Below the pieces are notes generated by a model. It saw nothing but the letters and a program-made list of their open reading frames with translations. It was not told where the DNA came from and ran no database searches. The position numbers and the translations under genes were made by a program. Below, piece by piece: positions 2,675-31,830 of a stretch of 64,000 nucleotides of DNA; position 1 is the stretch's first letter, and every line of letters begins with the position of its first letter. This stretch comes from an uncultured Carboxylicivirga sp. (GTDB lineage: Bacteria > Bacteroidota > Bacteroidia > Bacteroidales > Marinilabiliaceae): the NCBI GenBank assembly GCA_963668385.1, contig OY764327.1:5648724-5712723 (forward strand). The letters run 5' to 3'.

Positions 2675-2766
2675 TCATATTATCACCGAGGCTCACCCTA
2701 CAACATCTATAGCATATTTAATACAGATTATTATTTTCTTTGCAAAGATTAGCTATTAAAGATTAG

Positions 2767-5745: not shown

Positions 5746-5820
5746 TCTATAAGTTTTTTTATCCTATTATTAGTATTTTTGATTAGCACTCAATCGCACA
5801 CATTACTAATCGATACCTGA

Positions 5821-10130: not shown

Positions 10131-11084
10131 TCAAAACCAATAATACAAATACCTATGCTTAGTAAGTTCTTCTCCTAATTTTTGATCCAATGCTGCTAGG
10201 TAAACATTAATATTTTCCTTGCTTACTTCTGACCAAATCTTCAAATATTGTTTTCGAACATCAAGATCTTTTTTATTATTAGAATGACTAACTCGTATTT
10301 GATCACCAGTGGCTAAATCTATAGCAGTAATTGATTCTTCGGAAATTTCAACATTCTTTAACCCAATATGAATTGGATAAGTATAACGTTGGTTTTCAAG
10401 TTCCTCTTTAGGATTTAATGTTATAGGGTTAATAATCCAAAAACTTATCCAGTCTTCTTTAACCCTCCATGATTCAACACTTTTTATTGAGTGAACAAGA
10501 AACCTATTATTCTTATATTCCATTACAAAACACCCATTTTCAAAATGCTTTCTTTTAATATCCAGCTCCTCATGATATTCTAGTGCTGATACAAAAGATT
10601 CTATAGTAGAAAATACTGAATTGATTGTATTTATCACCTGTGGAATGCCTAGCTGAGCAATTGCGCCTACAAATGAGTGGCGTTCTGGATGTGCATAATG
10701 ATTCCGAATTTTTCTGGCTTTCTCAAATGCAAACTTAAGTTTTTTCTCAGGCTCTTTTTTGTGAAGTTCATTCATCAATTGATTTAAAGACTTCCTCCTT
10801 TTGTTTCCATTTTTGAGTTCTAGATCTAAAGAAATTTCGAGTTGTTCACACCTGAATTTAACAGCCATCTCAACTATACCTAATAACTTTTTAAATCCTT
10901 CATCATACATTGGATAATGATACCAGGCATGAGCAAGCAAATGCTCTACTGTTTCATAATCCATTAATATATCCTTCGGAACAGTTGATATAAAACGACC
11001 TTTAAAAATATATTTGCTAATGTAATCATCATAAGAGCGACAATACGCTTCCCATCGAGTATCAGGAATCTCATATTTTTGCAT
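10131..11084 (-). CDS. HEPN-domain protein, putative RNase
   Basis: IVEMAVK helix and KIRNHYAH (RNxxxH) motif; 6 nt downstream of the HNH gene. Confidence 0.6.
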   Translation of the reverse strand: MQKYEIPDTRWEAYCRSYDDYISKYIFKGRFISTVPKDILMDYETVEHLLAHAWYHYPMYDEGFKKLLGIVEMAVKFRCEQLEISLDLELKNGNKRRKSLNQLMNELHKKEPEKKLKFAFEKARKIRNHYAHPERHSFVGAIAQLGIPQVINTINSVFSTIESFVSALEYHEELDIKRKHFENGCFVMEYKNNRFLVHSIKSVESWRVKEDWISFWIINPITLNPKEELENQRYTYPIHIGLKNVEISEESITAIDLATGDQIRVSHSNNKKDLDVRKQYLKIWSEVSKENINVYLAALDQKLGEELTKHRYLYYWF

Positions 11085-11090
11085 ACTTTA

Positions 11091-12167
11091 TTACCTTCCT
11101 AAATTTTCACATAATCCTTGCAAATAACGGTCGGAAGCTCTATCAATCAAGTAATCAAAAAATGCAACATAAACAATTGACCTTTCACGATAATTAACAG
11201 GGAAAGTACTTCTAAATTCAATTAAGTTCGCCTTTAGTTGTTCAATAGTATTTGCATGGGTTAACAGATTAGATTTTGCAATATATCTTTTGTATTGACT
11301 TTCCCAATTTTTAAAAACACCATTCGTAATTGTAGAATTATACTTGTCTTTGATATTAAAAAGCCTCAACCAACTATCAAATATTTCTTTATCATTGGGG
11401 TCTATAATATTTATTTTCAGTGACCAGTCATCATTTGAAATTTTATCATTTGAAACTGTAGGTTCATTTATAAAATTAAAGGTTACTAAAACTCCACCAT
11501 GATTACAGTATGGGTAAAGTCCTTTTACTCTACCTGTTGATTTATAAATTACGTCTTTGGTTCCTTTAGATGGTCTAGAATTACATCCTGTCCCCATTGG
11601 AACCAGATTGTCGAAGTTTACATGAATATATGGGTAAGTATCCTTGCATAGCCAATGGTCAATTGCGGTTCGTGCCTGACCATCCAAATTTAAAATGTTT
11701 TCTAGTCCACAAAATGGACAAACTTCTATATCATTTATAGTGTTAAAATCATCAACATAATCATCAAGATTAGTTGAAAAATGGTCATTGAACTTGTGAT
11801 ATGGAAGAGAGTTTTTCCAGAGGTGTTTAAACAAATTAATAATTGGAGTTCGAATACTAAAATGTAAACTTGCAGGTTTAATTGCAGTTATTCCATTCGT
11901 ATTCTCACATAAATCCTGAATTTTATTTGTGTCTTGAAAAGCTTTAATTACTTTTTCTCTATCATTATTAGATGGTAACGCTTTATAACTATTAAAAACT
12001 ATTTCCAACTTGTTATTTAAGTCAGTTTCACCAAAAACATCATCATACCATTCAGGGAAATCGATATCCGAAAATAAAACCTTTTCATCAAGCTGTGCAA
12101 AAAATGAATCTATAAGCCGATGCAGTTCTGCTAAATCTGTATTAACTTTTTGAAGTGTAAATAGCAT
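11091..12167 (-). CDS. HNH endonuclease (PtuB-like)
   Basis: CPFCG ... IDHWLCKDTYP...NFDNLVPM..GCN; TAATG coupling to the upstream ATPase. Confidence 0.8.
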   Translation of the reverse strand: MLFTLQKVNTDLAELHRLIDSFFAQLDEKVLFSDIDFPEWYDDVFGETDLNNKLEIVFNSYKALPSNNDREKVIKAFQDTNKIQDLCENTNGITAIKPASLHFSIRTPIINLFKHLWKNSLPYHKFNDHFSTNLDDYVDDFNTINDIEVCPFCGLENILNLDGQARTAIDHWLCKDTYPYIHVNFDNLVPMGTGCNSRPSKGTKDVIYKSTGRVKGLYPYCNHGGVLVTFNFINEPTVSNDKISNDDWSLKINIIDPNDKEIFDSWLRLFNIKDKYNSTITNGVFKNWESQYKRYIAKSNLLTHANTIEQLKANLIEFRSTFPVNYRERSIVYVAFFDYLIDRASDRYLQGLCENLGR

Positions 12168-13966
12168 TATTCAGGCTTTTGTTTGAGTTCGTACAATTTG
12201 CTAAATAGGAATTGCTTCTCGCTTGATTCCCCAAACTTACTAATAGCTTTTCTTACTGTATTAATATCATCTGATTCAATGGCAGCTTCAAGTTCTTTTC
12301 TCGCTTTATCAGGAATTAAAACATTTTTATCCGAAAGCATTTTCATGATATAATCAACAGAAGCACCATAGGTCTCAAATTCAAGTTCTTTTGTTGCTGT
12401 TGTTCCATTCTTTCTTTCAAACCAAACTACATTTTTGGTTTTACAATCTGAAAGCATAATTGGAGAGTGAGTCGAAAGAATAACATTTTGTCTTTTTCTA
12501 TCAGATTTATCTTCAATCCGCTCTTTACGCATTAGGTAAATATCATTTAATGTGCTGAAAAACTTTGAACTCCAATCTGCATTAAAATGAGTCGATGGCT
12601 CATCTAGGATGAATATTGTTCCTTCTTCTTCCATTAAAAGTAGTGTACCAACAATTTGAATGAACTGATGCTCTCCATCAGAGAGACTTTTATAGAAAAT
12701 ATCGGTTTTGTCTGATTTCTTTTTTAACCGAACATCACTAATGTAAAAGACTTTATCTTCCTTAATGATTTCAGGCAACATTTCAGCAATATTTTTCCCT
12801 AACCCTGCCTTCTTAGCATCTTCCCTTAATTCTACCGAATAGTTATTAATGTTTAATAAATCCAATAAGTACAAATTCTGAAAAAAGTCAGATACTTTTG
12901 ATTTTCTAAAAGTCTCCTGAAATGCTCTTTTTAATTCCATGTCAACATGAAAGTACAAGGTGAGTTTTATCCAATCTTTTTCAGGATTAATATCCTTTTT
13001 ATCATTGTCAATAGTGAATTTCTGTGTGGTTGAACAATAGATTAAGTTGGTAATAAAAGATTGAAGTTGAATCGGGATGCTCACTTTCTGAAACAAAAGT
13101 GATTTGAAACTTTCTAGTAGTTGTTCTACTTCTGAACTTCCTGTTAATTCTTCAATTTTATCTTTTAGCCTGCTATAGGAGTGGTCTTTTTTTACATCAA
13201 GATTAAAAACTAGCTTGAATGAATGGATGTCTTCAACATCAACTACATCTTTCATATATTCAAGCTCTTTGTTTATTTTAAAACCTAGGTTATCTTCTAA
13301 AACATTATCTTTAAAAAGAAAGTTAGTTAAAAGAACTGAAGCATTGGATTTGTAGTCCATCAAATAAAGTCTGTTTAACCTTGTTGTTCCAATTGACTCT
13401 ATATTATTTGTTGCTCTTTCAAATTCATCAAAATAGAAGAATCCCATACGTTGAAATGGTTTGCTAATTTGCTCATTTCCACCTGAAGAATATGCTACTA
13501 CTTTAGAAGGTAAAATCTTGTCAAATGCTTCAATATAATAATCTTCAGTACTGAAATCCTTTTTTATAAGTTGAACTTCCTTTTCTCCATCAACTTTATA
13601 TGTTATAATTGGCGGTTTATGTTTGTATTTTTTAATGGTTACATTTCTTGTCAGACCATTTTTTACATAATCGCCAGGTTCATTTTGTAACAAGTTGTTG
13701 GCTGATAATGGAATTAGATATTCTATTAAAAAGCCAAAATTGCTATCTGTTTTTATATATTTTTTTGCTGATAAATTATTGATTGATTCTAAATAGAAAA
13801 AGATTTCTGAAATCAACTCCATTACATTTGATTTGCCCGACCCATTAAGACCAGCAAAACAAATAGGGTCAATCTCGTTTCTATTGAAATTATTTTTAAA
13901 CTTAATCTCAAATTCAGGCTGTAAACCCCTAAACTCTGAATATATTTTAATTCTTACTATTTCCAT
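12167..13966 (-). CDS. Restriction-system-associated ABC-type AAA ATPase (PtuA-like)
   Basis: Walker A GLNGSGKS, signature LSDGEHQ, Walker B FILDEPSTH, H-loop STHSP. Confidence 0.88.
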   Translation of the reverse strand: MEIVRIKIYSEFRGLQPEFEIKFKNNFNRNEIDPICFAGLNGSGKSNVMELISEIFFYLESINNLSAKKYIKTDSNFGFLIEYLIPLSANNLLQNEPGDYVKNGLTRNVTIKKYKHKPPIITYKVDGEKEVQLIKKDFSTEDYYIEAFDKILPSKVVAYSSGGNEQISKPFQRMGFFYFDEFERATNNIESIGTTRLNRLYLMDYKSNASVLLTNFLFKDNVLEDNLGFKINKELEYMKDVVDVEDIHSFKLVFNLDVKKDHSYSRLKDKIEELTGSSEVEQLLESFKSLLFQKVSIPIQLQSFITNLIYCSTTQKFTIDNDKKDINPEKDWIKLTLYFHVDMELKRAFQETFRKSKVSDFFQNLYLLDLLNINNYSVELREDAKKAGLGKNIAEMLPEIIKEDKVFYISDVRLKKKSDKTDIFYKSLSDGEHQFIQIVGTLLLMEEEGTIFILDEPSTHFNADWSSKFFSTLNDIYLMRKERIEDKSDRKRQNVILSTHSPIMLSDCKTKNVVWFERKNGTTATKELEFETYGASVDYIMKMLSDKNVLIPDKARKELEAAIESDDINTVRKAISKFGESSEKQFLFSKLYELKQKPE

Positions 13967-16019
13967 TAGTGTGTATTAAATAAAGCCTGAATGGGGACTC
14001 CGAATATTTTAATTGTTTGTAATGTTCAGGGTATTCAGTATTCATAACTCCAGGAAAGTATGCCTGTTTGATTTCCTTTTCAGATTGTAATTCTTGAATA
14101 ATAAACTCATGCAACAATTCAAAAGAAGGATTGAAAAGTTTCTCTTTTAGCTTCTCTGCTAACCCATTGAATGTAAATGCCGATTCATTAAATTCTGTTC
14201 TGACAAATACTTTAAAAGACCTGAATAACTCTATTTTTACATTTTCTTCACTAATATTTACTAAACCATAATTATCACCTAAACGATTAATTATTTCTTC
14301 AAATGTAAATTCCTGCCCCTTAAACTCTTCATGAATAAACCGAGGCATATTTACATTGTAATTGGCAAATGTTATTTTGCCTGCCTGTGTCTCACTGATG
14401 TATTTTAGGATTGGGTCGTTTTCACGGGAAAGTTCTTCTTCTATTTCCTTTAATCGTTTTTCTTCTTGATATTCCTCAAATGCAGGTATCATAAAATCCT
14501 CAGCAATTCCAAGTTGAGTTGAACTGTCTTTTACAATCTGAAACTGCTCCAAAGTTTTTATAGCATCTAATGCAGGAATCTTTAAACTATTAAGCGTTTT
14601 TTGAAATGACTTGATTGCTTCCAATGCAGGAAGATTCATTTTTTGTATTGTCTCCTGTACAGCTTGAATATTTTTTAAAGGTTCAGATAATACTTTTTCA
14701 ATTTGTCGTTGCTGTTTTGCAATTGCTTGTGTCGCTTTTAATAAACTTAATTGTGATTCATACCAGTTAATGGTTCTTATACTGGTTTGTAACTCTACAT
14801 TTTCATCAACTAACTCAAGTTCTTCACGAAATGCCTTTTGAAGAAGTGAATTGAAAAGTTGTTTAGAATCAGTTAAGGATTTTTCAAGTTTTTGTTTTTC
14901 AGCCAAAGCTTTTTCAACAATTGACTCAAAACTTTTTTGCAGTTCAATTGGTGCTAATGGAAATAGATGTTGCTTGAACTTTACCTGAGATATATTCAGC
15001 ATAGAACCACTTGTCCCAGTAGCTTTCTTTGCTAAATTCGTTCGATAACCTCTATTGGTTAGGACATATTTGAAATAGAAAGTTTGTACTTTTTCTTTAT
15101 TTAGGTCAATTCTCCAAAGCTTATCAGGTAAAAACAATTCTTCATAATTCTTATCAACAACACAAGTGGCAGCAACTAGTTCCTTTGTATTTGCTCTTGA
15201 AAATAATAAATCTCCTTTTTGAGGGTGAACCAACTGTTTTTTTATAATTGACTTGTCAACAGCTTTATGTTGTTCAGGTTTAAAATACCCAGACGTAACA
15301 GAACTTACTTTTAATACACCTAATTCATCTTTCTGTATCTGTCTGTTTTCACCGTTAGCACTCCATCCTGATTTTATCCCTTTAATAAAACTTGACATTT
15401 TAACCTGTTCCCAGTTTTTGGTATTTAAAAAAGGGTCACCAAACATTTCAAGAAATACAGATTTAACCAATTCATTTAAAATTGTTATGCTTTGTTTTCG
15501 TTTCCGGATGACATCTTCTGCTTCATTTAATATTTGCGCATAAGCCTTTTGTTTGTCTATCGATGGGAAAGGAATTCTAAGGTTATCAATATGGGCATTC
15601 GTTAAATTATTAATATTTCCTCCTCGAGCAAGGTTTGATATTGTTTCTCTGTAATTCTCTGTTCTAAAAAACAAAGCGGCATAATCTTTATCAATGTTCT
15701 CATTAAATCTCAAGACTTTGCAAAATGCTCCAAAGCTAAATTCTAAATCAGAATTGACTTTGGCACTTTTACCAACTATTTTAATACTTCCGCTAGAAGT
15801 TGAAATTAAGATGTCACCTTTTCTTAAAAATTGGTTTGGTTTAACTAGACTATCAGGCACATACACTAAATCATTAAATGTTAGTTCTTGGTCATCAGTA
15901 ATGTTTCCTGCCCTTAAAATGGGGATATAGCCTTTTTGAGGAGCCAATAGAGATTGTTCCTTTTTATAAGTAATACCCCTAACTTGAGTTATGAGTTTTC
16001 CTAAGAGTTCAGTTCTCAT
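13947..16019 (-). CDS. hsdS: Type I RM specificity subunit with ~290-aa C-terminal extension
   Basis: Two TRD/conserved-region repeats (LRIPFPSIDKQ; FPLAPIELQKSF), then a non-HsdS tail; ATGA overlap with hsdM. Confidence 0.88.
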   Translation of the reverse strand: MRTELLGKLITQVRGITYKKEQSLLAPQKGYIPILRAGNITDDQELTFNDLVYVPDSLVKPNQFLRKGDILISTSSGSIKIVGKSAKVNSDLEFSFGAFCKVLRFNENIDKDYAALFFRTENYRETISNLARGGNINNLTNAHIDNLRIPFPSIDKQKAYAQILNEAEDVIRKRKQSITILNELVKSVFLEMFGDPFLNTKNWEQVKMSSFIKGIKSGWSANGENRQIQKDELGVLKVSSVTSGYFKPEQHKAVDKSIIKKQLVHPQKGDLLFSRANTKELVAATCVVDKNYEELFLPDKLWRIDLNKEKVQTFYFKYVLTNRGYRTNLAKKATGTSGSMLNISQVKFKQHLFPLAPIELQKSFESIVEKALAEKQKLEKSLTDSKQLFNSLLQKAFREELELVDENVELQTSIRTINWYESQLSLLKATQAIAKQQRQIEKVLSEPLKNIQAVQETIQKMNLPALEAIKSFQKTLNSLKIPALDAIKTLEQFQIVKDSSTQLGIAEDFMIPAFEEYQEEKRLKEIEEELSRENDPILKYISETQAGKITFANYNVNMPRFIHEEFKGQEFTFEEIINRLGDNYGLVNISEENVKIELFRSFKVFVRTEFNESAFTFNGLAEKLKEKLFNPSFELLHEFIIQELQSEKEIKQAYFPGVMNTEYPEHYKQLKYSESPFRLYLIHTNGNSKN

Positions 16020-17614
16020 TTAATCATTCCATTTAGTTCTTCCATACCTGAGAGAATCTCTTTTTCTAAGCTTATAAGTTTTTTCAGTAAATCTTTTGGT
16101 GGTTGGTATTCCTCTTCCTGATAATTGAAATCTTTATATGGATTATTGCTTAAATTAAAATCATTCTCTTCTATCTCACTTACTGGTACATAAAAATGTT
16201 GATTTTTACGTTCTTCTTCATTATCGCCAATTCTTTCTTTCCAGCTTTCTACAGCTTTTGGCAAAGGATTTTCTTTTAGTTTTCTTCGATTATCATCTAA
16301 GGAATAACCATCACTCAACAATTCATAAAACCAAACTTTGTCAGTATGATATTTTTTTGAATTGAGTTCCACTTTTGTGAACACTAAGATTGCTGTTTTA
16401 ACTCCCGTGTATGGCTTAAATACTCCTGATGGAATGGAAATTACAGACTCCAGCTGACAGTCCATAAGTAAAGACTTTCGAATGTCTTTTTGAGCTTTGC
16501 TTCCTCCAAATAAAACACCTTCAGGAATAATTACAGCTGCTTTACCTCCTGACCTTAACATTCGAATTATTCGGTCAAGGAAAAGTAATTCGGTAGATGT
16601 TCCCGAGATTCGGAATTTATCGCTCATTTCTGTTTTCGAAATCTTTCCTGTAAATGGTGGATTTGCCATAATTACAGAATATTGCTCATCGCTTTCGTGA
16701 GCATCATATTTTTTCGAAAGTGTATCTATGTTTTCAATATTTGGTTTAGAAATATCGTGTAACATAAGGTTCATTAAACCAATCCGAACCATAGTTTGGT
16801 CAATATCAAAACCAAAGAAGGTATTTTCTTTTAGTTTTTTCCAAACTTTGTCTTTAGTTATTTTATCACCTAAAGTCCCACGTTTAAAACCATTTTCGTC
16901 TGTGGTTAAATGTTTGTCACTAGTATACTTCGTAAGAATATGTTGATACGCTCCCAATAAAAAACCACCTGTACCACATGCTGGGTCGCAAATTTTGTCA
17001 GTAACATCGGGGTCTATTATTTCAGCCATCAATTGAATAATATGTCGTGGTGTTCTAAATTGTCCGTTTTTACCAGCTTGCCCTAACTCATTAAGAAGAT
17101 ATTCATAAACATCGCCTTGTGTGTCCTGAAACTCTTGTCCTTTATCTTGCTGTTTTTTTATCTCTTCGTAAATTTCATCAATTGCTTTCACTGCTTCATC
17201 AAGCAAAAGTGGACTAGTTAATAAGAATACAGCATTTTGCATTGAGCGAGTGTAGGGCTGGTCTTCACTTTTTAATGTTTTGATAAATGGAAAAACAAAT
17301 TTGTTTACCAAACTTAGCATAGCTTCAGGTTCCAACTCTTTAAACTGGCTCCATCTTAGCTTTTTCTTTTCTATAGTATTTTCTTTTGTTTCTTCCTCTT
17401 TTGGATTTAACTGGAATTTTCCTGCAAAAATGGACTCGTATTTTTCCTCGGTAAATTCCGATTTAACTATCTTACTTGTATCCATTTCATCTAACCTTCG
17501 CATGAAAAGAAGGTAGGATATTTGTTCAATTGCCGTAATTGGGTTTGTAATCCCTCTCGACCAAAACTTATCCCAAAGCTTATTTATTTTTGATTTTAAA
17601 TCTGATGATAGCAT
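16016..17614 (-). CDS. hsdM: Type I RM N6-adenine methyltransferase
   Basis: GQFRTPRH, DPACGTGGFL (motif I), NPPF (motif IV). Confidence 0.96.
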   Translation of the reverse strand: MLSSDLKSKINKLWDKFWSRGITNPITAIEQISYLLFMRRLDEMDTSKIVKSEFTEEKYESIFAGKFQLNPKEEETKENTIEKKKLRWSQFKELEPEAMLSLVNKFVFPFIKTLKSEDQPYTRSMQNAVFLLTSPLLLDEAVKAIDEIYEEIKKQQDKGQEFQDTQGDVYEYLLNELGQAGKNGQFRTPRHIIQLMAEIIDPDVTDKICDPACGTGGFLLGAYQHILTKYTSDKHLTTDENGFKRGTLGDKITKDKVWKKLKENTFFGFDIDQTMVRIGLMNLMLHDISKPNIENIDTLSKKYDAHESDEQYSVIMANPPFTGKISKTEMSDKFRISGTSTELLFLDRIIRMLRSGGKAAVIIPEGVLFGGSKAQKDIRKSLLMDCQLESVISIPSGVFKPYTGVKTAILVFTKVELNSKKYHTDKVWFYELLSDGYSLDDNRRKLKENPLPKAVESWKERIGDNEEERKNQHFYVPVSEIEENDFNLSNNPYKDFNYQEEEYQPPKDLLKKLISLEKEILSGMEELNGMIK

Positions 17615-20419
17615 CTATGCTGATATTTTTTGTGTTAATTCTACAATTTCGTTTATCTCATTTGGTTTAAATACACCCAATATTCCGTTTGGATGAATTT
17701 GAGTGAACGGAGCACCAACTAAATCTTTTTTACTTATTTGTCCTTTATCTATTATAAATTTCCTGAGAATCTCAAGAAACTGTATTTGATTAGCTCCAAG
17801 ATTATTGTGTTGTGAAATGAATTCATCGAAAGCTAAGCCAACTACTTCACCAAACGATTTTATTTTTTCAATCCCCAAAATATGTTTTATGAATTGAATA
17901 AATTTCGCATTATGATTATCGTAAACTTTTTGAAGCAATTGCAATGTAACATGTGGTTGCTTTTCTTTAAGCATTGTTGCTAACATTTCAATTTCACTTT
18001 GTGTAATTCCATGACCTGTTTTTATTTTTTGAAGAATTAGATTATTAGTTGCAAGGTCATGAATTGTACTTTCAACCATTTCTTTGTATTTCTGAATGCT
18101 TACGACTTCATTTTCAGGGCCAAATTCAACGGTTTCTTTTTTATATGTTACATCTTTTAAGTTCAATTGAACTTCTTCATTTCCACCAGTATTGATTCCT
18201 TTTCGATACCTCATTAATGGTGATAGTTTCTGAAGGATTTCTTCTAGTTTCTCTTCACTAATTGAGTTCCAAAAAGATTCTCTCAATGCCTGTTTTATTA
18301 AATCCTTTTGTTTGATAACAATATTGATAGACAAAGGCAATTCATCAATTTGTGCAATTAAAATTTCTTTCATTGCATCAAATTCTTCCTCTTTTTCTTC
18401 CAATAGTGTAATTGAAGTTTCAAGAACATCTTTTTTAAACCTCATTTCAAAGAAGTCAACTCTTGAAATAGCTCTCATTATTGGTGCAATTGTTAATTTC
18501 AAAAATTCAATTTTTGAATCATCAATTTTTTCCCAGAACCCTTTTTCTTTAAGCCTTGCCAAATCATTTGCATTGTCCATTACCACCACATTATTCTCTG
18601 GTAGTAATTCAATAATACCCTGTAATCGACTGATTTCTTTTTCTGCAATGGCTTTGGAATCTTTTTCTTTTGCAATTTCAAATTTGTCAAGTATGGTTTT
18701 GAAATACCTGACAGGTAAGGCTAATTGATTGTTACCCTCACGACCTTTTGGATTGAGCTTGAAATATTCGAAATTATCCCAACAATCAATAATCAGGAAT
18801 TTATCTTTTGTATGACACCAAGGCTTTAAATTATTCTCGTCCAGAACTCTTGTGCCACGTCCAATCATCTGCCAGAATTTGGTGTATGAGAAAACTGGTT
18901 TTGCAAAAACTAAGTTAACAGCTTCTCTAACATCAATTCCGGTATCTAACATATCAACACTAATTGCAATTCGAGGGAAGTCACGATTTTTAAATTGGTC
19001 AAGCAAACCACCTTTGCCATAAACACGAGGGTCTTCAGAAACAATAACTTTTGCCAATTCACCTTTGTGTTGTGGAAAGAATTGGTCGAAGATTTCTTTA
19101 ATTCTTCGTGCATGTTTTATGGTCATGCAAAAGAAAATGGTTTTGCCTGGCAAAACCCCGTTTCTATCTTTTATGCACTCTTCCATAAATTCCTTTACAA
19201 TCAGTGCATTTGTGCCTTTGTTTGTTACTGATTTTTCGAGTGAAGTTCCTTCAAAATTTAGTTCTTCAATGTCTTTACCTTCAGCTATTAGCTTTTTCTG
19301 GTCATCGATAGAAATGGTTGTAGCATGAATTCCGTCAACTTGAAACTTTGTGCTAATTTTTAGGACCTCAAAATCATTCAAATATTTTGGAATATTCTTA
19401 ACTGCTTCATCATAGGTGTATGCAAATGAGGGTAATCCATCTTCGCAATCGAAAACTTCGAAAGTATTATGGTCAATTACATCTGTTGGCGTTGCTGTAA
19501 GTCCAAGAACAACAGCATTGAAATAATTTAAAATGTTTTGATAAACATTATAAATCGAGCGGTGACTTTCATCGACAATAACTAAATCGAAAAAATGGGG
19601 AGAAAGACTATTTTGTTCTTCTTCAACAATATTCAACATTGTTGGGTACGTTGAAACATACAGTCTTCTGTCAAACACAAAGTCTTTCTCATTTTGATTT
19701 GGCCAAACAGAGTAATTTGGAGTATGTTCTTTAATCGCTTCAACTGCTTGGTTTCTTAGTTCAATTCTGTCAACCAGAAATAAAGCTCTTGAAATCCAAC
19801 CTGCTCGCATTAATGTGTCAATTAATGCTATTGTTGTTCTAGTTTTTCCAGTTCCTGTTGCCATTACCAGTAGGAATTTTCTTCTCCGTTGTTCAATTCC
19901 TTCCATTACAGTTCTAATAGCTTGAATTTGATATGGTCTTCCTGCTATTTCTGTATTTATCAATTCTTCAGCAAGCGGAGTTTTGTTTTCTCTGATAAAA
20001 GCTAGTCTTTCAAGGTCTGCTCTTGTTGGAAAACCGTAAACTTTATATGGAGCATATTCACCAACATTCCAAAAATAGATATCGTGTCCATTTGAATAAA
20101 AAACAAACGGTTCATTGCATTTATAAACTTCCTTTATTTTCTGAGCATATTGTTTGGCTTGTTCTTCTCCTTTTCTTGCATCCACAGAGTCCTTTTTGGC
20201 TTCGATAACTGCTAATGGTTTTTGATCTTTACCTAAAAGAACATAGTCACAATATTGATTTGACTTATAATTTTCGATTGGTTCCTCAACAATATTAGAG
20301 GAATCTGATTTAATTGTAAATTCCTGAATCACTTGCGTTAAGTCATCAACATTCCATCCCGCTTTTTTGAGCTTTAGGTCAATTATTTCTCTCCTTGTTT
20401 GTGATTCTAAATTTGCCAT
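17615..20419 (-). CDS. hsdR: Type I RM restriction subunit (EcoAI/EcoEI-like)
   Basis: DYVL...IEAKK nuclease motif, MATGTGKT, DESH, LTATP, QMIGRGTR. Confidence 0.95.
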   Translation of the reverse strand: MANLESQTRREIIDLKLKKAGWNVDDLTQVIQEFTIKSDSSNIVEEPIENYKSNQYCDYVLLGKDQKPLAVIEAKKDSVDARKGEEQAKQYAQKIKEVYKCNEPFVFYSNGHDIYFWNVGEYAPYKVYGFPTRADLERLAFIRENKTPLAEELINTEIAGRPYQIQAIRTVMEGIEQRRRKFLLVMATGTGKTRTTIALIDTLMRAGWISRALFLVDRIELRNQAVEAIKEHTPNYSVWPNQNEKDFVFDRRLYVSTYPTMLNIVEEEQNSLSPHFFDLVIVDESHRSIYNVYQNILNYFNAVVLGLTATPTDVIDHNTFEVFDCEDGLPSFAYTYDEAVKNIPKYLNDFEVLKISTKFQVDGIHATTISIDDQKKLIAEGKDIEELNFEGTSLEKSVTNKGTNALIVKEFMEECIKDRNGVLPGKTIFFCMTIKHARRIKEIFDQFFPQHKGELAKVIVSEDPRVYGKGGLLDQFKNRDFPRIAISVDMLDTGIDVREAVNLVFAKPVFSYTKFWQMIGRGTRVLDENNLKPWCHTKDKFLIIDCWDNFEYFKLNPKGREGNNQLALPVRYFKTILDKFEIAKEKDSKAIAEKEISRLQGIIELLPENNVVVMDNANDLARLKEKGFWEKIDDSKIEFLKLTIAPIMRAISRVDFFEMRFKKDVLETSITLLEEKEEEFDAMKEILIAQIDELPLSINIVIKQKDLIKQALRESFWNSISEEKLEEILQKLSPLMRYRKGINTGGNEEVQLNLKDVTYKKETVEFGPENEVVSIQKYKEMVESTIHDLATNNLILQKIKTGHGITQSEIEMLATMLKEKQPHVTLQLLQKVYDNHNAKFIQFIKHILGIEKIKSFGEVVGLAFDEFISQHNNLGANQIQFLEILRKFIIDKGQISKKDLVGAPFTQIHPNGILGVFKPNEINEIVELTQKISA

Positions 20420-21236
20420 AATGATAAGTTTGCAAATGTAACATATTTAAGGGCCAAACCTCTTTCATATATTCTTTAATTACATCAATAAGATCATCCG
20501 ATTCCACTGGTGTATATTCTGGTGATTTCGTAAGAAATATGTAATCGTATTTTAGGTACGTTTCAAAATGAGGATACCATATATGTCTGAAAGGTATTCT
20601 TTTGAAATTTTCATCTGGATTTGTATATGCTAATTGCGATATACTTGCTCCAGTTTTAAACCTATTCTTGTTATACAATCTCAGTTGTATTGAATGTGGT
20701 AATTTTAATATTGGTTGACCATACATATCTTTTTTGAGTGGATATTTAGGTAGATTAAAATACATAAATCCCAAATCACTAAAATCGTTTTCCAACGAAA
20801 TAAAATTTAATGATCGTATTAAATCAGCGCATGCTAAAAAAATTAGATAATTACTTATTTTCACCTCACTCTCTTTAGGAAATAATCTTAATGGCTTTGG
20901 CCGATGAAGTAAATCTTTAAAAATGTAATTAAATCCTAGATCCCCATTGCCTGTATCTGAATGTGCATCGACATGATCTATTGAAAACTTAACCGGTTCT
21001 CCCATTCTTAAAGCTAAATCTCGAAGAAAAAAGAAAACCTCATTATGATCCTTAAATATCTTTCCTTTAATTTTATTCTTTGATGATAACTTACAGTTTT
21101 GTTCCAAGAATTTCCTAACCCTGCCCTCTTCCCATGGTGAATAGTCTTCACTAGACAATCTACCTTCTGAACAAAACAGCGCAATTCCATCTAGAAAGAA
21201 ATCCAAATCTATATCTAAAACATTAAGAATCTTCAC
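20379..21236 (-). CDS. UPF0489-family protein
   Basis: LDIDLDFF, DHNEVF and DHVDAHSD motifs; GTG start; overlaps hsdR start by 41 nt. Confidence 0.7.
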   Translation of the reverse strand: MKILNVLDIDLDFFLDGIALFCSEGRLSSEDYSPWEEGRVRKFLEQNCKLSSKNKIKGKIFKDHNEVFFFLRDLALRMGEPVKFSIDHVDAHSDTGNGDLGFNYIFKDLLHRPKPLRLFPKESEVKISNYLIFLACADLIRSLNFISLENDFSDLGFMYFNLPKYPLKKDMYGQPILKLPHSIQLRLYNKNRFKTGASISQLAYTNPDENFKRIPFRHIWYPHFETYLKYDYIFLTKSPEYTPVESDDLIDVIKEYMKEVWPLNMLHLQTYHYGKFRITNKERNN

Positions 21237-21238
21237 AA

Positions 21239-22147
21239 TTAACTTTCAAAATAATCTGAATCAATTTCTTTATACACAAAGGTCTCTTTAGGGGAGATAC
21301 CAATATTGTCCTCAATCATAAGCTCAGCCAAACGTTTCCCATCAATCAGAATTAATGTACGATCAATCTTTTCGGCAAATTCTTTAGCAGAAGAAGGAAA
21401 ATCTGAGGTTGTGATAAAAACACCTTTACGTGCGTTATGAGCGAGCATAGCTCCAGCAAAATCTCGCACTTCTTTAACGGGTACTGTATTGCTGTATCGT
21501 TTCGCCTGGATGTATATTTTATCCAACCCCAAACGATCTTCATTGATAATTCCGTCTATTCCACCATCGGCGGATTTTTTAGTTACTTGTGCAGCTTCAG
21601 AGCGGTTTCCTCCATAACCAATTGCCTGAAGTAAATCTAAAACTAGTACTTCAAATTTATATGGATCAACCTTTATGAGTTGGTCAGACAATTGTCCTAT
21701 CAGTAACCTATTAATCTGTTGGTAGGCTTTCTCAAATTTCTCCTTTGGTGTTTGGATGTCTGATTCAACAATCTGTTCATTACTTTCTTCACTCTCTTTG
21801 CCATTAGTACCCACAAACTCATTAAAGGAATCATATTGCCTAAGAAAAGCTGCATCAATCCTTGTTCGATTAGTTTTCAGAACTTCCAAACCGAGATTTG
21901 TTATTTGAACAAAACCACGTTTCTCTGATTGTAATAAACCCGCTTTCTTTAAGTAAGTATTAGCCCAACCAACACGATTATCAAACAAAGGTTGTTTACC
22001 ACTGGGCAATAATTCTCGTCTATCTTCCTCTGTAAGGTTAAACTCCTGGGCAAGCTTTTCTATTAATTCCCGAAACTTATGTGTTTGTTCATCTGCAACA
22101 CACGTTAATAGTGGTAACATGATGGATTGATAATCTGGTACTGGCAT
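21239..22147 (-). CDS. mrr: Mrr type IV restriction endonuclease
   Basis: MPVPDYQSIMLPLL N-terminus (likely start 22147), RVGWANTYL, DGGIDG...IQAKRY. Confidence 0.93.
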   Translation of the reverse strand: MPVPDYQSIMLPLLTCVADEQTHKFRELIEKLAQEFNLTEEDRRELLPSGKQPLFDNRVGWANTYLKKAGLLQSEKRGFVQITNLGLEVLKTNRTRIDAAFLRQYDSFNEFVGTNGKESEESNEQIVESDIQTPKEKFEKAYQQINRLLIGQLSDQLIKVDPYKFEVLVLDLLQAIGYGGNRSEAAQVTKKSADGGIDGIINEDRLGLDKIYIQAKRYSNTVPVKEVRDFAGAMLAHNARKGVFITTSDFPSSAKEFAEKIDRTLILIDGKRLAELMIEDNIGISPKETFVYKEIDSDYFES

Positions 22148-22270
22148 GTGTGAACAATTTAAGTTCTCTAAAATAGCACTTCTCCGGGATATTATGCTCA
22201 ATAAAGCTGCCTTAATTGCACACTAATGCTCTAAAACATCCTAAAATCATATACATTCAGAATGAAAAAA

Positions 22271-23248
22271 TTAAGCAGTAACACACAAATCAAATTTCTC
22301 TATCAATAAGCCCAGGTACTTATTTTTCTTTTTAAGCTTATTTATAAGAGCATTTGGACCTGCCAGATACTGTTCCTTTTTTATGGAGATAACCAAATCG
22401 GCAATATCATCACCTTCATTTAAATCAGTATTTTCCAAAACAGTATTTACACTAACATCAAAGCTAGCTCTTTCGGCTATCTTGCTCCACTTCTCAAATG
22501 CTTTTCCTTTATCAGGAAATAAAGTCACCTGGTAACCGTTGAGGGCATTTAGCTTTTGTAGATTGAGCATTTCAATAGAACCAACAGCGACCCAACTGTA
22601 TTGTGGATAATATAACGCTCCAAATATGGCATTCTTTTCTCCTTCAGCAATAGCCACTGGAGTTGTTTTACTGGTAAGTAAATGCGCTCCAAAGAATACT
22701 TGCTTTAAATTGAAGTCCTTTTGCTTAGTAATATGATGCACCCAATTGATGTATCCATTACGTTTTAATGTATGTACATTATATTGCATCACTTTACCAG
22801 TCCGCACTTGCCCCAATCGGTTGACTTGCCAGAAAATAGTTTTGTTTCCTTTAGCTGTACCAACGTAATACTTCTGTAATACCTCCCAAACCATACGTTG
22901 CGGGAAATATTTACTCAATCCTATAGCAAAGTTGTTGTGGTAATAATTGGTAAGGGAGGCTGTCAATAACTTTTTGTCAATACATGAAGGTGGTTTTACA
23001 ATTATTTTTGGTTTTGGGACTGTTGTATAAAAATCACTCGGTTCGTATCCATTTTCCTCAAAGTACATCTTAGGGGTAAAATGGTAACCACATTTTTCAA
23101 CCCGGTTACATCTTCCGGTATAATCAGATAAATGTTTATTGGTTTGATTATCGACATACCTGGTAAAAGTCCTCTGATGACATTTCGGACAATGATACCT
23201 GGTTGACCGTCCTTTGTATTTTTCCAATGAATAGCGAATATCTGACAT
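22271..23248 (-). CDS. Zn-finger + DUF6371/Toprim primase-like protein
   Basis: CPKC..C.R...C Zn module; Toprim EGEKNA, FPDKG, DIAD. Confidence 0.75.
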   Translation of the reverse strand: MSDIRYSLEKYKGRSTRYHCPKCHQRTFTRYVDNQTNKHLSDYTGRCNRVEKCGYHFTPKMYFEENGYEPSDFYTTVPKPKIIVKPPSCIDKKLLTASLTNYYHNNFAIGLSKYFPQRMVWEVLQKYYVGTAKGNKTIFWQVNRLGQVRTGKVMQYNVHTLKRNGYINWVHHITKQKDFNLKQVFFGAHLLTSKTTPVAIAEGEKNAIFGALYYPQYSWVAVGSIEMLNLQKLNALNGYQVTLFPDKGKAFEKWSKIAERASFDVSVNTVLENTDLNEGDDIADLVISIKKEQYLAGPNALINKLKKKNKYLGLLIEKFDLCVTA

Positions 23249-23269
23249 AAAAGAGACTTTTCTTGTTTT

Positions 23270-23745
23270 AGTGGAGTTAGTGGAGTAGTGGAGGATTATT
23301 GTTTTTCAAGCACTTACTACTCCACGCCACTCCACTCACTCCACAAGTTGATGATTAATTAATTGGCGCTTCGCCCAAACCCGACTTCATCTCTTTGCTC
23401 AAGCCGCAAGGGCTTTTCCTTTCTTCCTGCAGCCGAAGAAAGAAACAAAGAAGTCCGCCGACTGCACCACTCGCTTACCCACTATTTCCTTATTTTTTGA
23501 GACAGAAAGAACTCACTGCGGTCAAACAGCTTTCTATCTTATCAAAACATAAGAAAAGTGGGTCCCAAGCTGCGTTGCTAATGTCGGGTACTCAACTCGA
23601 AACACTAGCATTTTATAGTAACAACCTTTTATAGTGCAGGAGAATAAAGATCAATTTATTTCATACTCCACAGTTACTACACTCAAACTCCACACATAAA
23701 AACCTGTGAATCAATAAAACTCCACAACTACGCAAACTCTACAGT
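23270..23745. repeat. GTGGAG/CTCCAC short-repeat cluster, candidate replication origin
   Basis: 3x GTGGAG (23271-23293) facing 3x CTCCAC (23320-23345); further ACTCCAC copies at ~23665, 23687, 23719; lies between primase and DUF3987 genes. Confidence 0.5.
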
Positions 23746-23784
23746 ATTCCCTGTTTTCTCTGAGCCATTATTGCAGCAGTAAGA

Positions 23785-25158
23785 TTAATTGAGTACGTCA
23801 GTTTCGTACACGCCTTTCTGCTTTTTATGCGCCAGTTTGGTATTGCTCAGCAATTGATAAGCGTATGATTCTTTGGCGATATTGAGTTTGTTGGCCATTT
23901 CAATAAACTCTTTATTGGTGAATTCCCGTTTACCAATCTTCTTTAAAACCTGAAATACCTTACCTTCCTTTGAGTTGTCTTCATACACATTTAAAACCAT
24001 GTGATTTAGCTTTAATGCATTGGAAAAGAAGTAATCCTTAAGCATAATGGCTTTCTTCATTGAACTTTCGCTTATCTGCTTGATCGCCTGCCCTGCAAAA
24101 AAACTATTGGAGACTTCAAGAACCAGGGCAAACCGTAAAATATATCTATCCAACTTCGACAGGATTCCCGATATGGTAGCATCTTTATTGGATGGCTTTA
24201 CATGTTTGTTAACTTCTTCAATAAACAAGTCCTCTGCCTTTTCAGATAACGGTAACTCTATCGTATTAATGCTCTCATAGACTTTATCCATCAATGCTTG
24301 CATCCTGGAATGAAATTTTTCAACCAGATAATTATCCGGATTCTTTCTTCCAATTAATTTCTTCTCCATTTTTAACGGAATGGCAAAAAGAATTCGTTCA
24401 AAGAAACCGTCCTTTATATCCTTGGCCTTAAAGGATGCAATCACATCATCCTGAATACTTCCTATAATTGATACGCAAGGCATACTCAATGAAGAGCTTT
24501 CAACTTCTTTACGATCCAAAGAAATAGGCGCACCATCCCATATTGATAAAAACTGACTTTGCTTTGAGGTTCCGCTATAACCAATCAGATTCAATATAAA
24601 ACTCTTAAACTCATCGGGCATCAATATCATACCATTGGGGTTTTGCTTATGCATATTTATCAGGGCCTCAAATGTTGGATCTGTCGAATACAGCTTTTTC
24701 TTAGTCGGTTTCTTTTCTCCTAAATCAGGATCATAATTGGCGATGGCTGCTTCATATTCCTGATCGTATTGCTTTTGCTGGTTTTTGATAGCTTTAAAAG
24801 CTGTTTTTAAGGGAGCACTTTTATTCTGTCCTGACTTGCCAACCAATACCACCCACATGGATGGATTTTCTATCCATTCAATATGTTTACGTAAATGATA
24901 CGAATTACCAATGATTCCGGCTAGAGCTGTAAAAACACTTACAGCTGTATAATCGATGTTATAATTTCCATTGTCATACAATTCAATAATGGTATCCTGA
25001 ATAAACTTTGGAAATATACTTAATGGAAATTCAGATTCCTCAGCTGTTTTCAATCTTAAATTGGCTTCTTGAAGTGACATCTTACCAAATGTAAGATGCG
25101 ACCGCCCCAATTCTGTTGTTTCTTTTTCAATTGATTCCATACGCAAAGGATTATCCAT
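23785..25158 (-). CDS. DUF3987/YfjI-family P-loop protein
   Basis: VLVGKSGQNKS, DPTFEAL, DEFKSF, DGFFERILF; likely ATG at 25158 overlapping the upstream HTH stop. Confidence 0.8.
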   Translation of the reverse strand: MDNPLRMESIEKETTELGRSHLTFGKMSLQEANLRLKTAEESEFPLSIFPKFIQDTIIELYDNGNYNIDYTAVSVFTALAGIIGNSYHLRKHIEWIENPSMWVVLVGKSGQNKSAPLKTAFKAIKNQQKQYDQEYEAAIANYDPDLGEKKPTKKKLYSTDPTFEALINMHKQNPNGMILMPDEFKSFILNLIGYSGTSKQSQFLSIWDGAPISLDRKEVESSSLSMPCVSIIGSIQDDVIASFKAKDIKDGFFERILFAIPLKMEKKLIGRKNPDNYLVEKFHSRMQALMDKVYESINTIELPLSEKAEDLFIEEVNKHVKPSNKDATISGILSKLDRYILRFALVLEVSNSFFAGQAIKQISESSMKKAIMLKDYFFSNALKLNHMVLNVYEDNSKEGKVFQVLKKIGKREFTNKEFIEMANKLNIAKESYAYQLLSNTKLAHKKQKGVYETDVLN

Positions 25159-25432
25159 TAATACTTTCCAGATAAGCTTCAATTTCTGAAGCCTTATAGT
25201 AGATTTTGCGTCCGGTTTTCTTAAAGGCAATAACCTTATTGTCACGCATGGTTTGCAAAGTCCGTCTACTCACATTTAAGAGTTTGCATACTTCTTCGGT
25301 AACGTACCACCTATCTTTAAAACCATCATTCTTTGCAACACTGATACTATCAATCTTATCATTAATATGGTCGATCTTGCCCATTAACTTATTGAAGAGA
25401 TGCTCATCTACAATTACAACTGTCTTGCTCAT
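25151..25432 (-). CDS. Excisionase-like HTH protein
   Basis: WYVTEEVCKLLNVSRRTLQTMRD...GRKIYYKASEI. Confidence 0.88.
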   Translation of the reverse strand: MSKTVVIVDEHLFNKLMGKIDHINDKIDSISVAKNDGFKDRWYVTEEVCKLLNVSRRTLQTMRDNKVIAFKKTGRKIYYKASEIEAYLESING

Positions 25433-26830: not shown

Positions 26831-27580
26831 TTAATTTACTTCTATAATTAGTTCCTTTTCATAACCATTATATTTCTCATCACTATATCCATGTGGATTA
26901 CAGATAACTTCCGTTTCATTAATCTTATATCTCACAGGTATATGCACATGACCGTGAAGCCAATATTGAGGCTTTTGCTCAATAATAAAATCCTCTAAAT
27001 TGGAAGCATATGCAGAAGATACGGGATCTTCCTTATATTGATCTGGCACTGACTTTATGCTGGGAGCATGGTGCGTTACAACAATATTTGTAACGGTTTT
27101 AGATTCTATTAAGCTTTTTTTAAGCCATGATATGGATTGATTATGAAGATTAAAAGTATCTATGGTTCTTAGGCGTGAATATGAAGGATCTCTTCTTATT
27201 TTCTTATAATCATTCATCTTCTCCTGACAAATGATTCCATATTTAATTGGATTACCAAATATTGAAAAATCAGTCCAAAGGGTAGCTCCATGAAATGTTA
27301 TACCATCAATCTCTATCGATTCGTTTTCTAACACATGAATATTTGTTCCTTTTGCAAATTCTTTAATCTTTAGCAATGTTTTAGGATAACATCCCTTGTA
27401 GTATTCATGATTACCCAATACATATATAACTGGCTTATTGGATATTTCTTTCACCATCCAACTTATTCCTTTTACACCAAGATTGATATCACCTGCAAAC
27501 ACAACAATGTCAGCATTGTCAAAACTAAATTGATTAAATCCAAACTCTTGATGTATATCGCTAATGATCTGTATTTTCAT
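26831..27580 (-). CDS. Calcineurin-like metallophosphoesterase
   Basis: SDIH, AGD, GNHE, THH and HGHVH motifs. Confidence 0.92.
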   Translation of the reverse strand: MKIQIISDIHQEFGFNQFSFDNADIVVFAGDINLGVKGISWMVKEISNKPVIYVLGNHEYYKGCYPKTLLKIKEFAKGTNIHVLENESIEIDGITFHGATLWTDFSIFGNPIKYGIICQEKMNDYKKIRRDPSYSRLRTIDTFNLHNQSISWLKKSLIESKTVTNIVVTHHAPSIKSVPDQYKEDPVSSAYASNLEDFIIEQKPQYWLHGHVHIPVRYKINETEVICNPHGYSDEKYNGYEKELIIEVN

Positions 27581-27966
27581 CCGTTAAGTATATCTTCATT
27601 TGTCAGATGGAACTCTCTATGAATTTTAATTATTCTAATGTATACAATTTAGAATATTAAAATTCATGTTCGCTTCATTCTATAATTGCATTGACAATAC
27701 CCGTTCGGGTATAATTCATGGCCGTACTAGCCTATTTATACCTGATAGGGTATAAACAATTCATCTCATATACATGATACATTTAAGGAGATTGCGTAAT
27801 AACCAGAACAAACCAATTCTGTAGCATTTTTAGTATTTAGCGATGTGGAAGTTTTTGCATATGTAACATCTCTTGCTTCATTTTCACAGATACACAATGT
27901 TCACGTAACATGAACAAATTAAATATGTGAACAACTATGAAAATTCATATAGTTTTTAACTGAATG

Positions 27967-28104: not shown

Positions 28105-28132
28105 TTTATCAATTCTTTTAATAAAGTTTTAA

Positions 28133-30600: not shown

Positions 30601-31830
30601 ATGAAGCTTATGAGAAGTACTTTTAATGTTCTTTTTTTCATTAAAAAGAATGCAGAAAAAAAAGATGGAACGGCACCTGTTGTTGCAAGAATTACCATTA
30701 ATGGTAAAATGGCTCAGTTCAACACCAAGCAATTTATTAAACCGGAAGACTGGAGTGTTGATTTAGGAAAAGCCAAAGGCAGAAATGCGGAAGCCAAAAC
30801 TATTAATTCTGTTTTGGAAGAAATTAAAATTTCTATTCACGAAGCTTATAATGACCTGACCAGAAGAGACACATTAATAACAGCCGAAAAAATAAAAATC
30901 ACATTCTTAGGCATTGGGTTGGAGCAACACTTATTGTTGGAGCTTTTTGAAGAATGCAACAATACGTTAAAAACACAAGTTGGCATTACCAAATCAAAAG
31001 CTACCTATCAAAAAGCAGAAGTGTGTAAACGACATTTATCTGAATATTTAAAAATAGAACACAAATTATCGGATATTGATTTAAGGGATATCAATCACTC
31101 CTTCATTGTTGGGTTTGAAAACTTCCTTACCATTAAATGCCATTGCAACTTAAATACAAGCGCAAAATTTATGCAAAAATTCAAAAGCATAGTATTGCTT
31201 GCTCAAAAGAATGGATGGTTACTGAATGATCCCTTCGGCAACTATAAAATATCTTTAAAGAAGGTTGACAGGGGCTACCTAAATGACGATGAACTAAAAC
31301 GCATCATGCAAAAAAGCTTTGGTAGTGAACGGTTAGAGCGCATACGTGATATTTTTATTTTCTCGTGCTATACCGGACTTGCATATATTGATATTAAAAA
31401 CCTTAGGCAGGAACACATAACTAAAGGTTTTGACGGCAATTTATGGATAAACACAAAGCGCCAGAAAACATCCATAAAAACGGTTGTACCTCTACTGGAT
31501 ATAGCCCAATTAATCCTAGATAAATACAAAGGTTTGCCCAATGGTGTACTTTTACCAATTCCAACGAATCAAAAAACGAACCAATATTTGAAAGAAATTG
31601 CTGATGTCTGCGGTATTAATAAAAACCTTACGTTTCACTTGGCACTGCATACTTTTGCAACCACTGTTACACTATCAAAGGGTGTCCCTATTGAATCCGT
31701 TATTAAAATGCTTGGACATACCAATATTAAAACGACTCAAATTTATGCTCGTATTACCAATGAAAAGATTGGTGCAGACATTAAATTATTAGCGGAAAAG
31801 TTAAAGGTTTCAGAAGTAAGTTTAGCTTGA
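30601..31830 (+). CDS. Bacteroidetes-type site-specific integrase, probably inactive
   Basis: Arm-binding N-terminus (GTAPVVARITING), FSCYTGL, LGH, TQIY; HxxR reads HLAL. Confidence 0.9.
   Translation: MKLMRSTFNVLFFIKKNAEKKDGTAPVVARITINGKMAQFNTKQFIKPEDWSVDLGKAKGRNAEAKTINSVLEEIKISIHEAYNDLTRRDTLITAEKIKITFLGIGLEQHLLLELFEECNNTLKTQVGITKSKATYQKAEVCKRHLSEYLKIEHKLSDIDLRDINHSFIVGFENFLTIKCHCNLNTSAKFMQKFKSIVLLAQKNGWLLNDPFGNYKISLKKVDRGYLNDDELKRIMQKSFGSERLERIRDIFIFSCYTGLAYIDIKNLRQEHITKGFDGNLWINTKRQKTSIKTVVPLLDIAQLILDKYKGLPNGVLLPIPTNQKTNQYLKEIADVCGINKNLTFHLALHTFATTVTLSKGVPIESVIKMLGHTNIKTTQIYARITNEKIGADIKLLAEKLKVSEVSLA

Follow-up and report, generated by a model that had tools for sequence, protein, structure and literature searches.

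Septu consists of an ABC-type ATPase, PtuA, and an HNH nuclease, PtuB (e.g. PDB 8EE4). In type I-A retrons (Ec78/Eco7, Ec83), a PtuAB-type effector has been co-opted by a separate sensing module via added elements (PMC12819146), and in the solved retron and Septu complexes PtuA grips the helical C-terminal domain of PtuB with its own C-terminal extensions (PMC12819146). An effector gene may also be locked into a type I restriction-modification (RM) operon, as in the type IC system EcoprrI, where the anticodon nuclease PrrC is encoded next to hsdS and has been described as a sensor of enzyme inhibition (PMC12707154). In MADS (MAD1-8), a type I-like methylase (MAD2) and an S subunit (MAD5) are found with a DNA-cleaving ATPase-nuclease pair (MAD3-MAD4), and deletion of the S gene succeeded only when the gene for the methylase or the ATPase was removed as well. 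Here we analyzed a 64,000-nucleotide stretch of contig OY764327.1 (positions 5,648,724 to 5,712,723; hereafter, the window) from an uncultured Carboxylicivirga sp., in which eight minus-strand open reading frames (ORFs) are packed within 10131–22201. The junctions between them measure 2, −41, 0, −4, −20, −1 and +6 nt in ORF coordinates, in exact agreement with an earlier sequence-only reading of the same DNA, which had described the eight genes as one coupled restriction operon. The gene identities proposed in that reading were borne out by family searches, the UPF0489 and HEPN assignments by way of homologues. With moderate confidence, we consider that the eight genes represent a mosaic of three anti-phage modules carried on an integrative mobile element, namely Mrr-UPF0489 (module A), hsdR-hsdM-hsdS-ATPase-HNH (the core) and HEPN (module C), and that the core has a PtuAB-like nuclease arm.

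Twenty aligned homologues of the ATPase were used to fetch 79 loci from species-representative genomes (27–69% identity), representing the top 80 among at least 512 relatives, and these loci were searched by phmmer with the window proteins. They span Bacteroidota, Campylobacterota, Thermodesulfobacteriota, Bacillota, Spirochaetota and others. The order hsdM-hsdS-ATPase-HNH was observed on a single strand in essentially all 79 loci; HNH was detected in 77, HsdS in 73 and HsdM in 71. Contig ends or divergent, undetected subunits account for the loci in which one of them was missed. The hsdS and ATPase genes overlapped in 66 of the 72 junctions, and the ATPase and HNH genes overlapped or lay no more than 7 nt apart in all but one locus. 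The partner HsdM proteins all belonged to one lineage (phmmer E ~1e-150), and no further gene family recurred around the unit in this neighbourhood survey. As a second, independent sample, the TIGR04435 model was run over 400 evenly drawn Bacteroidota genomes; 12 (3%) scored above its cut-off, including the window's own genome, and all 11 other loci shared the hsdM-hsdS-ATPase-HNH architecture. Not one locus with readable flanks in either sample (79 + 11) had an ATPase-HNH pair without an hsdS-like gene directly upstream. The family was absent from 17 other species of the window's genus, which fits horizontal acquisition. As a whole, these comparisons indicate that M, S, ATPase and HNH are a single inherited unit, which belongs to one EcoAI/EcoEI-like lineage of type I systems. 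A rare rearranged order was observed in two loci (L057 and L113), in which a large helicase-like gene or hsdR is followed by an hsdS-like gene, the ATPase, HNH and, last, hsdM; even there, the pair keeps its place directly behind the S gene.

Within this unit, the S subunit and the ATPase appeared to be connected at the protein level. At least four natural HsdS-ATPase fusion proteins were found (P0066, P0070, L047 and L046). HsdS has a median length of 531 aa in the family, and the window HsdS bears a long C-terminal extension (Table 1), which was homologous in L001, L002, L003 and L009. When jackhmmer was started from the globular tail only, related tails were found to form the extreme C-terminus of HsdS in 22 loci; a run started from the entire extension was discarded because it strayed into the coiled coils of HsdS. 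The tail variant of the window is rare, and among 1.84 billion representatives it was detected only at the C-terminus of proteins of ~640–750 aa and of a few shorter, probably truncated ones. Pairwise distances correlated more closely between the HsdS tail and the ATPase (r = 0.83) than between the ATPase and HNH (0.66) or HsdM (0.58). Both recognition domains of HsdS were replaced between close relatives (10–30% identity), and in the same relatives HsdM, the ATPase and the last ~100–150 residues of HsdS were 65–94% identical. A comparable exchange was seen at the other end of the ATPase. In the locus pairs L050/L058, L018/L024 and L062/L076, the ATPases were 78–83% identical overall, with 6–47% identity in the last ~100 residues and 23–37% identity between the HNH proteins. 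HNH has thus been exchanged between ATPase lineages, with a breakpoint internal to the ATPase gene, so that the final ~100 residues of the ATPase move along with the nuclease. By analogy, this co-swapping would match the interface between the PtuA C-terminal extension and the PtuB C-terminal domain. Because of the invariant order, the overlaps, the fusions and the co-variation of the tail, the link between the pair and the type I system is much closer than would be expected of mere neighbours in an island, and the coupling of a type I RM system to an ATPase-HNH pair, as proposed in the sequence-only reading, holds.

The pair resembled that of Septu, the HNH protein over its core only. The ATPase matched TIGR04435 with 347.3 bits against a cut-off of 300, over residues 1–595 of the protein and positions 1–567 of the 568 in the profile, and belongs to this family. 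Walker A (GLNGSGKSN), signature (SDGEHQ), Walker B (DEP) and H-loop motifs were invariant in 20 homologues; together with the match to the PADLOC model of PtuA, these intact motifs identify it as an ATPase of the PtuA type. A search of the PDB with the ATPase profile returned PtuA chains only (E, 2e-8 to 3e-4), aligned over the C-terminal half, with retron PtuA chains scoring best. The ATPase itself contained no nuclease domain. In the HNH protein, residues C150, C153, D170, H171, N184, C195, N196 and K201 (CxxC...DH...N...CN..K) were invariant among 30 homologues, and the PADLOC PtuB model aligned with residues 150–207 only, i.e. the ~55-residue HNH core. Its AlphaFold2 (AF2) model was confident (pLDDT, 93.9) and ended in a helical domain, but had no fold match in the PDB by Foldseek, and the protein had no PDB sequence match; sequence and profile searches of the PDB with the HNH and HEPN proteins gave coiled-coil or 14-3-3 noise only. 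The ATPase-HNH pair is supported as PtuAB-like, in line with the earlier proposal, PtuA chains being the only solved relatives of the ATPase profile.

The remaining subunit, HsdR, was found to be optional. The window contains a complete type I RM set, with the DESH, ATGTGKT and D...EAK motifs in HsdR, NPPF in HsdM and two recognition domains in HsdS. A cognate HsdR (~930 aa) was encoded upstream of hsdM in 39–40 of the 79 loci, some copies being fragmented or truncated, whereas hsdR was missing from 23 of the 63 loci with sufficient flanks. HsdR-containing (R+) and HsdR-less (R−) loci were interleaved on the ATPase tree, and at least 12 changes were needed to explain their distribution. Whole-genome searches detected no HsdR homologue in 13 of 22 R-less genomes, and the other nine had only homologues of 29–39% identity. 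The possibility that a different HsdR lay hidden downstream in R-less loci was considered and rejected, because phmmer with two other HsdR types found none; ten large ORFs near such loci were housekeeping genes by Pfam (TonB receptors, SecA, Pol III alpha, TraG and similar). The view that a full type I enzyme is the necessary partner of the pair therefore has to be given up. NPPF was intact in 67/67 HsdM proteins of the family, R-less loci included, and recognition domains were exchanged inside R-less clades too. Since R-less loci retain NPPF, turnover of the recognition domains and the invariant catalytic residues of the ATPase and HNH, the comparison indicates that HsdR is dispensable and that the four-gene set is the selected unit. 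The closest relative of the window unit, L001 from an Odoribacter metagenome-assembled genome (69% ATPase identity), captures hsdR in the course of being lost: only its last ~116 codons remain, at 6110–6457, before an intact hsdM-hsdS-ATPase-HNH.

Table 1. Genes of the eight-ORF cluster and of the adjoining mobile element, in window coordinates
Feature	Position	Strand	Matches and other evidence
Mrr-type type IV restriction endonuclease (module A, gene 1)	21239..22147	-	Mrr_N 3.8e-35, Mrr_cat 3.5e-38
UPF0489-like arginase-fold metal hydrolase (module A, gene 2)	20379..21236	-	homologues with PF12640; profile match to 8brp
HsdR, type I restriction subunit, EcoAI/EcoEI-like (optional core member)	17615..20419	-	ResIII 1.3e-42, EcoEI_R_C 1.7e-25, HSDR_N; PADLOC REase_I 4e-150
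HsdM, type I N6-adenine methyltransferase (core)	16016..17614	-	N6_Mtase 9.5e-67, HsdM_N
HsdS, whole gene, 690 residues	13947..16019	-	
HsdS specificity core, residues 1–405 (two target-recognition domains and conserved regions)	14805..16019	-	PADLOC Specificity_I 3e-66, residues 6–401
HsdS C-terminal extension, residues 406–690 (coiled-coil linker and globular tail; proposed ATPase adaptor)	13947..14804	-	
ABC-type ATPase, PtuA-like, 599 aa (core)	12167..13966	-	TIGR04435 347 bits; PADLOC PtuA (PDLC00293) 1.6e-42
HNH nuclease partner of the ATPase, 358 aa (core)	11091..12167	-	PADLOC PDC-M62B 2e-18, PtuB 1e-6
DUF4145-type HEPN and PH-like beta-barrel protein, 317 aa (module C)	10131..11084	-	invariant HEPN motif; family hits to DUF4145
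Mobile-element backbone: DUF6371 and zinc-ribbon protein, DUF3987, HTH_17 (context only)	22271..25432	-	Pfam
Tyrosine integrase, likely end of an integrative element or defence island	30601..31830	+	Phage_integrase, Arm-DNA-bind_5, Phage_int_SAM_5

From gene fusion, co-variation and co-swapping, we infer a protein chain in which an M2S1 methyltransferase would be joined through the HsdS tail to an ATPase dimer, and the dimer through its C-terminal extension to HNH. The methyltransferase core would gain a second, HsdR-independent nuclease arm in this way: on recognizing an unmethylated target site, the M-S core would license cutting by the ATPase and HNH, which would work beside HsdR in the window and replace it in R-less genomes. 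Such a restriction-like trigger, with an unmethylated site read by the M-S core licensing a PtuAB-like nuclease, is the reading we tentatively favour, at somewhat under an even chance. It is favoured because R-less loci keep an active-looking methylase and a diversifying specificity subunit, because the nuclease appears to be tethered to the DNA-reading subunit, and because MADS provides a precedent for a methylase and an S subunit combined with a DNA-cleaving ATPase-nuclease pair. It is possible, and a more speculative proposal, that hsdM-hsdS(tail)-ATPase-HNH constitutes a self-sufficient, HsdR-independent class of RM system, of which the R-less loci, about 40–50% of the family, would be the pure form; in loci like that of the window, a single specificity core would then serve two alternative nuclease arms. 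Should the R-less loci use the pair as their nuclease, this would represent a new way to build a restriction enzyme.

Several points weigh against a restriction-like trigger. Where HsdR is intact, a further restriction nuclease seems superfluous, which speaks for a back-up or guard role in R+ loci like that of the window. The known PtuAB effectors are toxins that are released or sequestered and that act by tRNA-Tyr cleavage or DNA nicking, not site-directed restriction enzymes (PMC12819146, PMC12673091, PMC13096335). Conservation of NPPF and turnover of the recognition domains in R− loci could reflect recent loss of HsdR or epigenetic roles of the methylase. Moreover, family members more distant than the 80 from which our loci were drawn might break the invariant order, and the fusion proteins come from metagenome assemblies, in which frameshift errors are possible.

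The strongest competitor is a guard arrangement confined to the core, in which M-S (or R-M-S) would hold the PtuAB-like pair inactive until anti-restriction proteins such as Ocr, ArdA or Stp, or other damage to the complex, free it to cause abortive infection by DNA nicking or tRNA cutting, much as EcoprrI masks PrrC and retron Ec78 sequesters PtuAB. The physical-coupling evidence (fusions, co-variation of the tail and invariant order) is shared by both readings, and precedents exist: type I-A retrons sequester PtuAB via elements acquired by PtuA (PMC12819146), and PrrC and PARIS have been described as guardians of RM systems (PMC12707154). A guard would also account for the retention of a second nuclease in loci whose HsdR is intact, such as that of the window. 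However, the loci that lack hsdR have no HsdR to guard, in most cases not even a homologue elsewhere in the genome, so that M-S would serve purely as a decoy there. For a decoy that attracts DNA mimics irrespective of sequence, an intact NPPF and exchange of the recognition domains would both be unnecessary, yet the family has both. We thus regard a guard as unlikely, although a serious alternative, and an abortive trigger is no better supported than a restriction-like one. If the core is a guard, the principle of PrrC and PARIS would extend to a widespread, Bacteroidota-centred family present in ~3% of evenly sampled Bacteroidota genomes. The core system is compact, with four or five genes, and offers clear point mutants, so that both ideas are directly testable.

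Alternatively, the pair might be an autonomous Septu-type system, which has simply settled within or behind restriction operons as a preferred insertion site and is independent of M-S. Nesting inside type I RM, BREX and Hma loci is common among defence systems, which can nevertheless function on their own (Payne et al., bioRxiv 10.1101/2024.01.29.577857), and the PADLOC models PDC-M62 and PDC-M01, derived from that study, match the window proteins; Septu was found inside Hma in only 0.7% of cases in the same study (Payne et al., bioRxiv 10.1101/2024.01.29.577857). Against such autonomy, the pair was never found without an hsdS-like gene directly upstream, its ATPase is in places fused to HsdS, a family-specific HsdS tail co-varies with this ATPase, and a single HsdM lineage accompanies it. 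We consider this explanation improbable.

The genes flanking the core have different histories. Mrr shows both of its domains above the cut-offs, the Mrr_N winged helix and the PD-(D/E)xK Mrr_cat, as in type IV enzymes of the Mrr type, and matched PADLOC mREase_IV (2.7e-79) from residue 19. Its longest ORF extends to a TTG at 22201 (21239–22201), and the ATG at 22147, which is also the end coordinate given in the sequence-only reading, agrees with the start of the Mrr profiles. The hydrolase encoded next to it scored 19.1 bits with PF12640, below the gathering score of 27, and this domain was carried by many of its 41 homologues. Residues D8, D10 and D12 (DxDxD), H64, and H88, D90, H92 and D94 (HxDxHxD) were invariant in the family, the profile of which matched a peptide arginase (8brp, 1.8e-4). 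The 41-nt overlap with hsdR is accounted for by an extra, non-conserved C-terminal tail of 24–25 residues, which is absent from homologues of ~250–260 aa. Elsewhere, UPF0489 homologues follow SIR2_2 (L090) or HD-CE/HATPase_c_3 genes, or sit in defence islands. Since distant homologues directly follow other effector genes, the hydrolase may be a generic accessory enzyme of defence nucleases, as the gene neighbourhoods suggest. Mrr and the UPF0489/arginase-fold hydrolase were observed as a recurring pair, 2–3 nt apart, in the window (20379–22147), L086 (4427–6130) and L087 (5239–6909).

At the other end of the cluster, the HEPN protein had no direct Pfam match. Its family is small (16 clusters), with R124, R127-N128-x3-H132-P133 and E72 invariant; 13 of the 16 members matched DUF4145 (PF13643; best, 1.3e-5), and others matched HEPN_Apea, Csm6_HEPN and Abi_2. 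These conserved residues and family matches indicate that the gene product is a member of the HEPN superfamily, DUF4145 branch, with RNase activity only putative. The AF2 model (pLDDT, 89.7) comprised a helical N-terminal domain followed by a PH-like barrel, and Foldseek returned only low-TM DH/PH-like matches, which are not diagnostic. In four of five contexts, the HEPN homologue was encoded immediately 3′ of hsdS or hsdR, in type I systems that had no ATPase-HNH pair, and the gene, as judged from its neighbourhoods, is an independent restriction-linked gene. Family members thus directly follow hsdS or hsdR at several type I loci that are unrelated to one another (window, 10131–11084; L080, 4639–5589; L084, 10001–10963; L091, 7219–8175), a genomic habit like that of PrrC in a protein with no ATPase domain. 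Two of these loci have two hsdM genes split by a DUF4145 (HEPN) gene, in the order hsdM-DUF4145-hsdM-hsdS (L084, 5199–9998; L091, 2422–7207), and there the gene for the HEPN and PH-like protein and two large helicase genes precede hsdR.

Among the 79 loci, HEPN was found in none, UPF0489 in none and Mrr in one. The sequence-only reading had listed HEPN and UPF0489 as possible extra components and had named their failure to co-occur with the module in other genomes as half of what would refute it; this is what the survey found, and the two are not components of the core but belong to separately evolving modules. Its overall interpretation stands in so far as a coupling between an RM system and a PtuAB-like pair is real, and fails in its list of components. 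A single layered system of all eight genes, with HEPN and UPF0489 as extras of an RM-guarded PtuAB effector, is consistent with the co-directional genes, with junctions of no more than 6 nt and with the repetition of most of the arrangement on the same backbone in L087, but is very improbable given the lack of any conserved accessory family, the HEPN homologues beside other type I systems, the UPF0489 homologues behind Mrr, SIR2_2 or HD-CE/HATPase_c_3 genes, and the unequal module identities in L087 (91, 47, 60 and 29%), which point to independent histories.

L087, a metagenomic contig, repeats Mrr-UPF0489-hsdR-hsdM-hsdS-ATPase on the backbone type of the window, with identities of 85% for DUF3987, 85% for DUF6371, 91% for Mrr, 47% for UPF0489, 60% for HsdR, 49% for HsdM and 29% for the ATPase. 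The reverse pattern within module A was seen in L086 (UPF0489, 82%; Mrr, 58%), where the pair adjoins a different restriction system. These uneven identities indicate that the modules have separate histories and share a cargo hotspot. The backbone of DUF3987, DUF6371-zinc-ribbon protein and HTH_17 was observed beside core cargo in the window (22271–25432), L087 (2262–5116), L072 (11180–13800) and L105. A backbone position that holds cargo of very different ancestry marks a defence hotspot. The rest of the island (427–10071 and 26831–31830) encodes a HipA kinase, HTH_17, a metallophosphatase, an AbiEii/AbiEi pair and a tyrosine integrase, as well as an AEP-TOTE primase-helicase (992 aa) and an SMEK-nSTAND3 (SMEK-STAND) NTPase (1416 aa). 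No tRNA gene marking the end of the island was found, and scans for sigma-70 and Bacteroidota promoter patterns and for terminators gave chance-level, uninformative results.

A link of this family to restriction is already on record as annotation labels, TIGR04435 being the NCBIfam "restriction system-associated AAA family ATPase", and PDC-M62 and PDC-M01 being PADLOC models of PDC systems, i.e. candidates found by "guilt by embedding". A literature search, which left many subscription journals outside its reach, found no paper mentioning TIGR04435 or the family name and no experimental study of the family. The window locus retains HsdR and is an intact representative of a Septu/type I variant that is catalogued yet uncharacterised, with two further small modules of some interest at its flanks.

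Compared with MADS, the core shows the same combination of a type I-like methylase, an S subunit and an ATPase-nuclease pair. However, MAD4 is an OLD/Toprim-type nuclease, not HNH, no matches to the mandatory genes MAD6, MAD7 and MAD8 were found at the window locus, and assignment to MADS was rejected on the NCBIfam scores (MAD2, 127 bits against a cut-off of 720; MAD3, 16 against 420; MAD5, 42 against 400). With PrrC and EcoprrI, the core shares an effector gene locked into a type I operon next to hsdS, but PrrC is a single protein in which an N-terminal ABC ATPase is fused to a C-terminal nuclease, whereas the core ATPase and HNH are separate; the HEPN protein of the window has no ATPase domain and is elsewhere unlinked to the pair, and HsdR is often absent from the core family. 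The likeness to Septu lies in the translational coupling of an ABC ATPase gene to an HNH nuclease gene behind it and in an ATPase C-terminal segment that is inherited with the nuclease. The core differs from Septu in that its pair never stands alone as a self-contained two-gene system but follows hsdM-hsdS in every locus with readable flanks, in that similarity of the ATPase to PDB entries is limited to the C-terminal half (E ~1e-8), and in the larger size of its HNH protein, in which only the HNH core aligns with PtuB. As to type I-A retrons, no reverse transcriptase domain was detected by Pfam in any ORF between 427 and 33087, no search having been made for a non-coding RNA. The core resembles these retrons in that a PtuAB-type effector appears to have been taken over by a separate module via added elements, and differs in having a DNA methyltransferase/specificity complex as partner and in carrying the proposed adaptor on HsdS, not on PtuA. 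The core family would thus be a second natural example, after type I-A retrons, of a Septu ATPase-nuclease wired to a different sensing module, which in this case would be a methyltransferase that reads both sequence and methylation.

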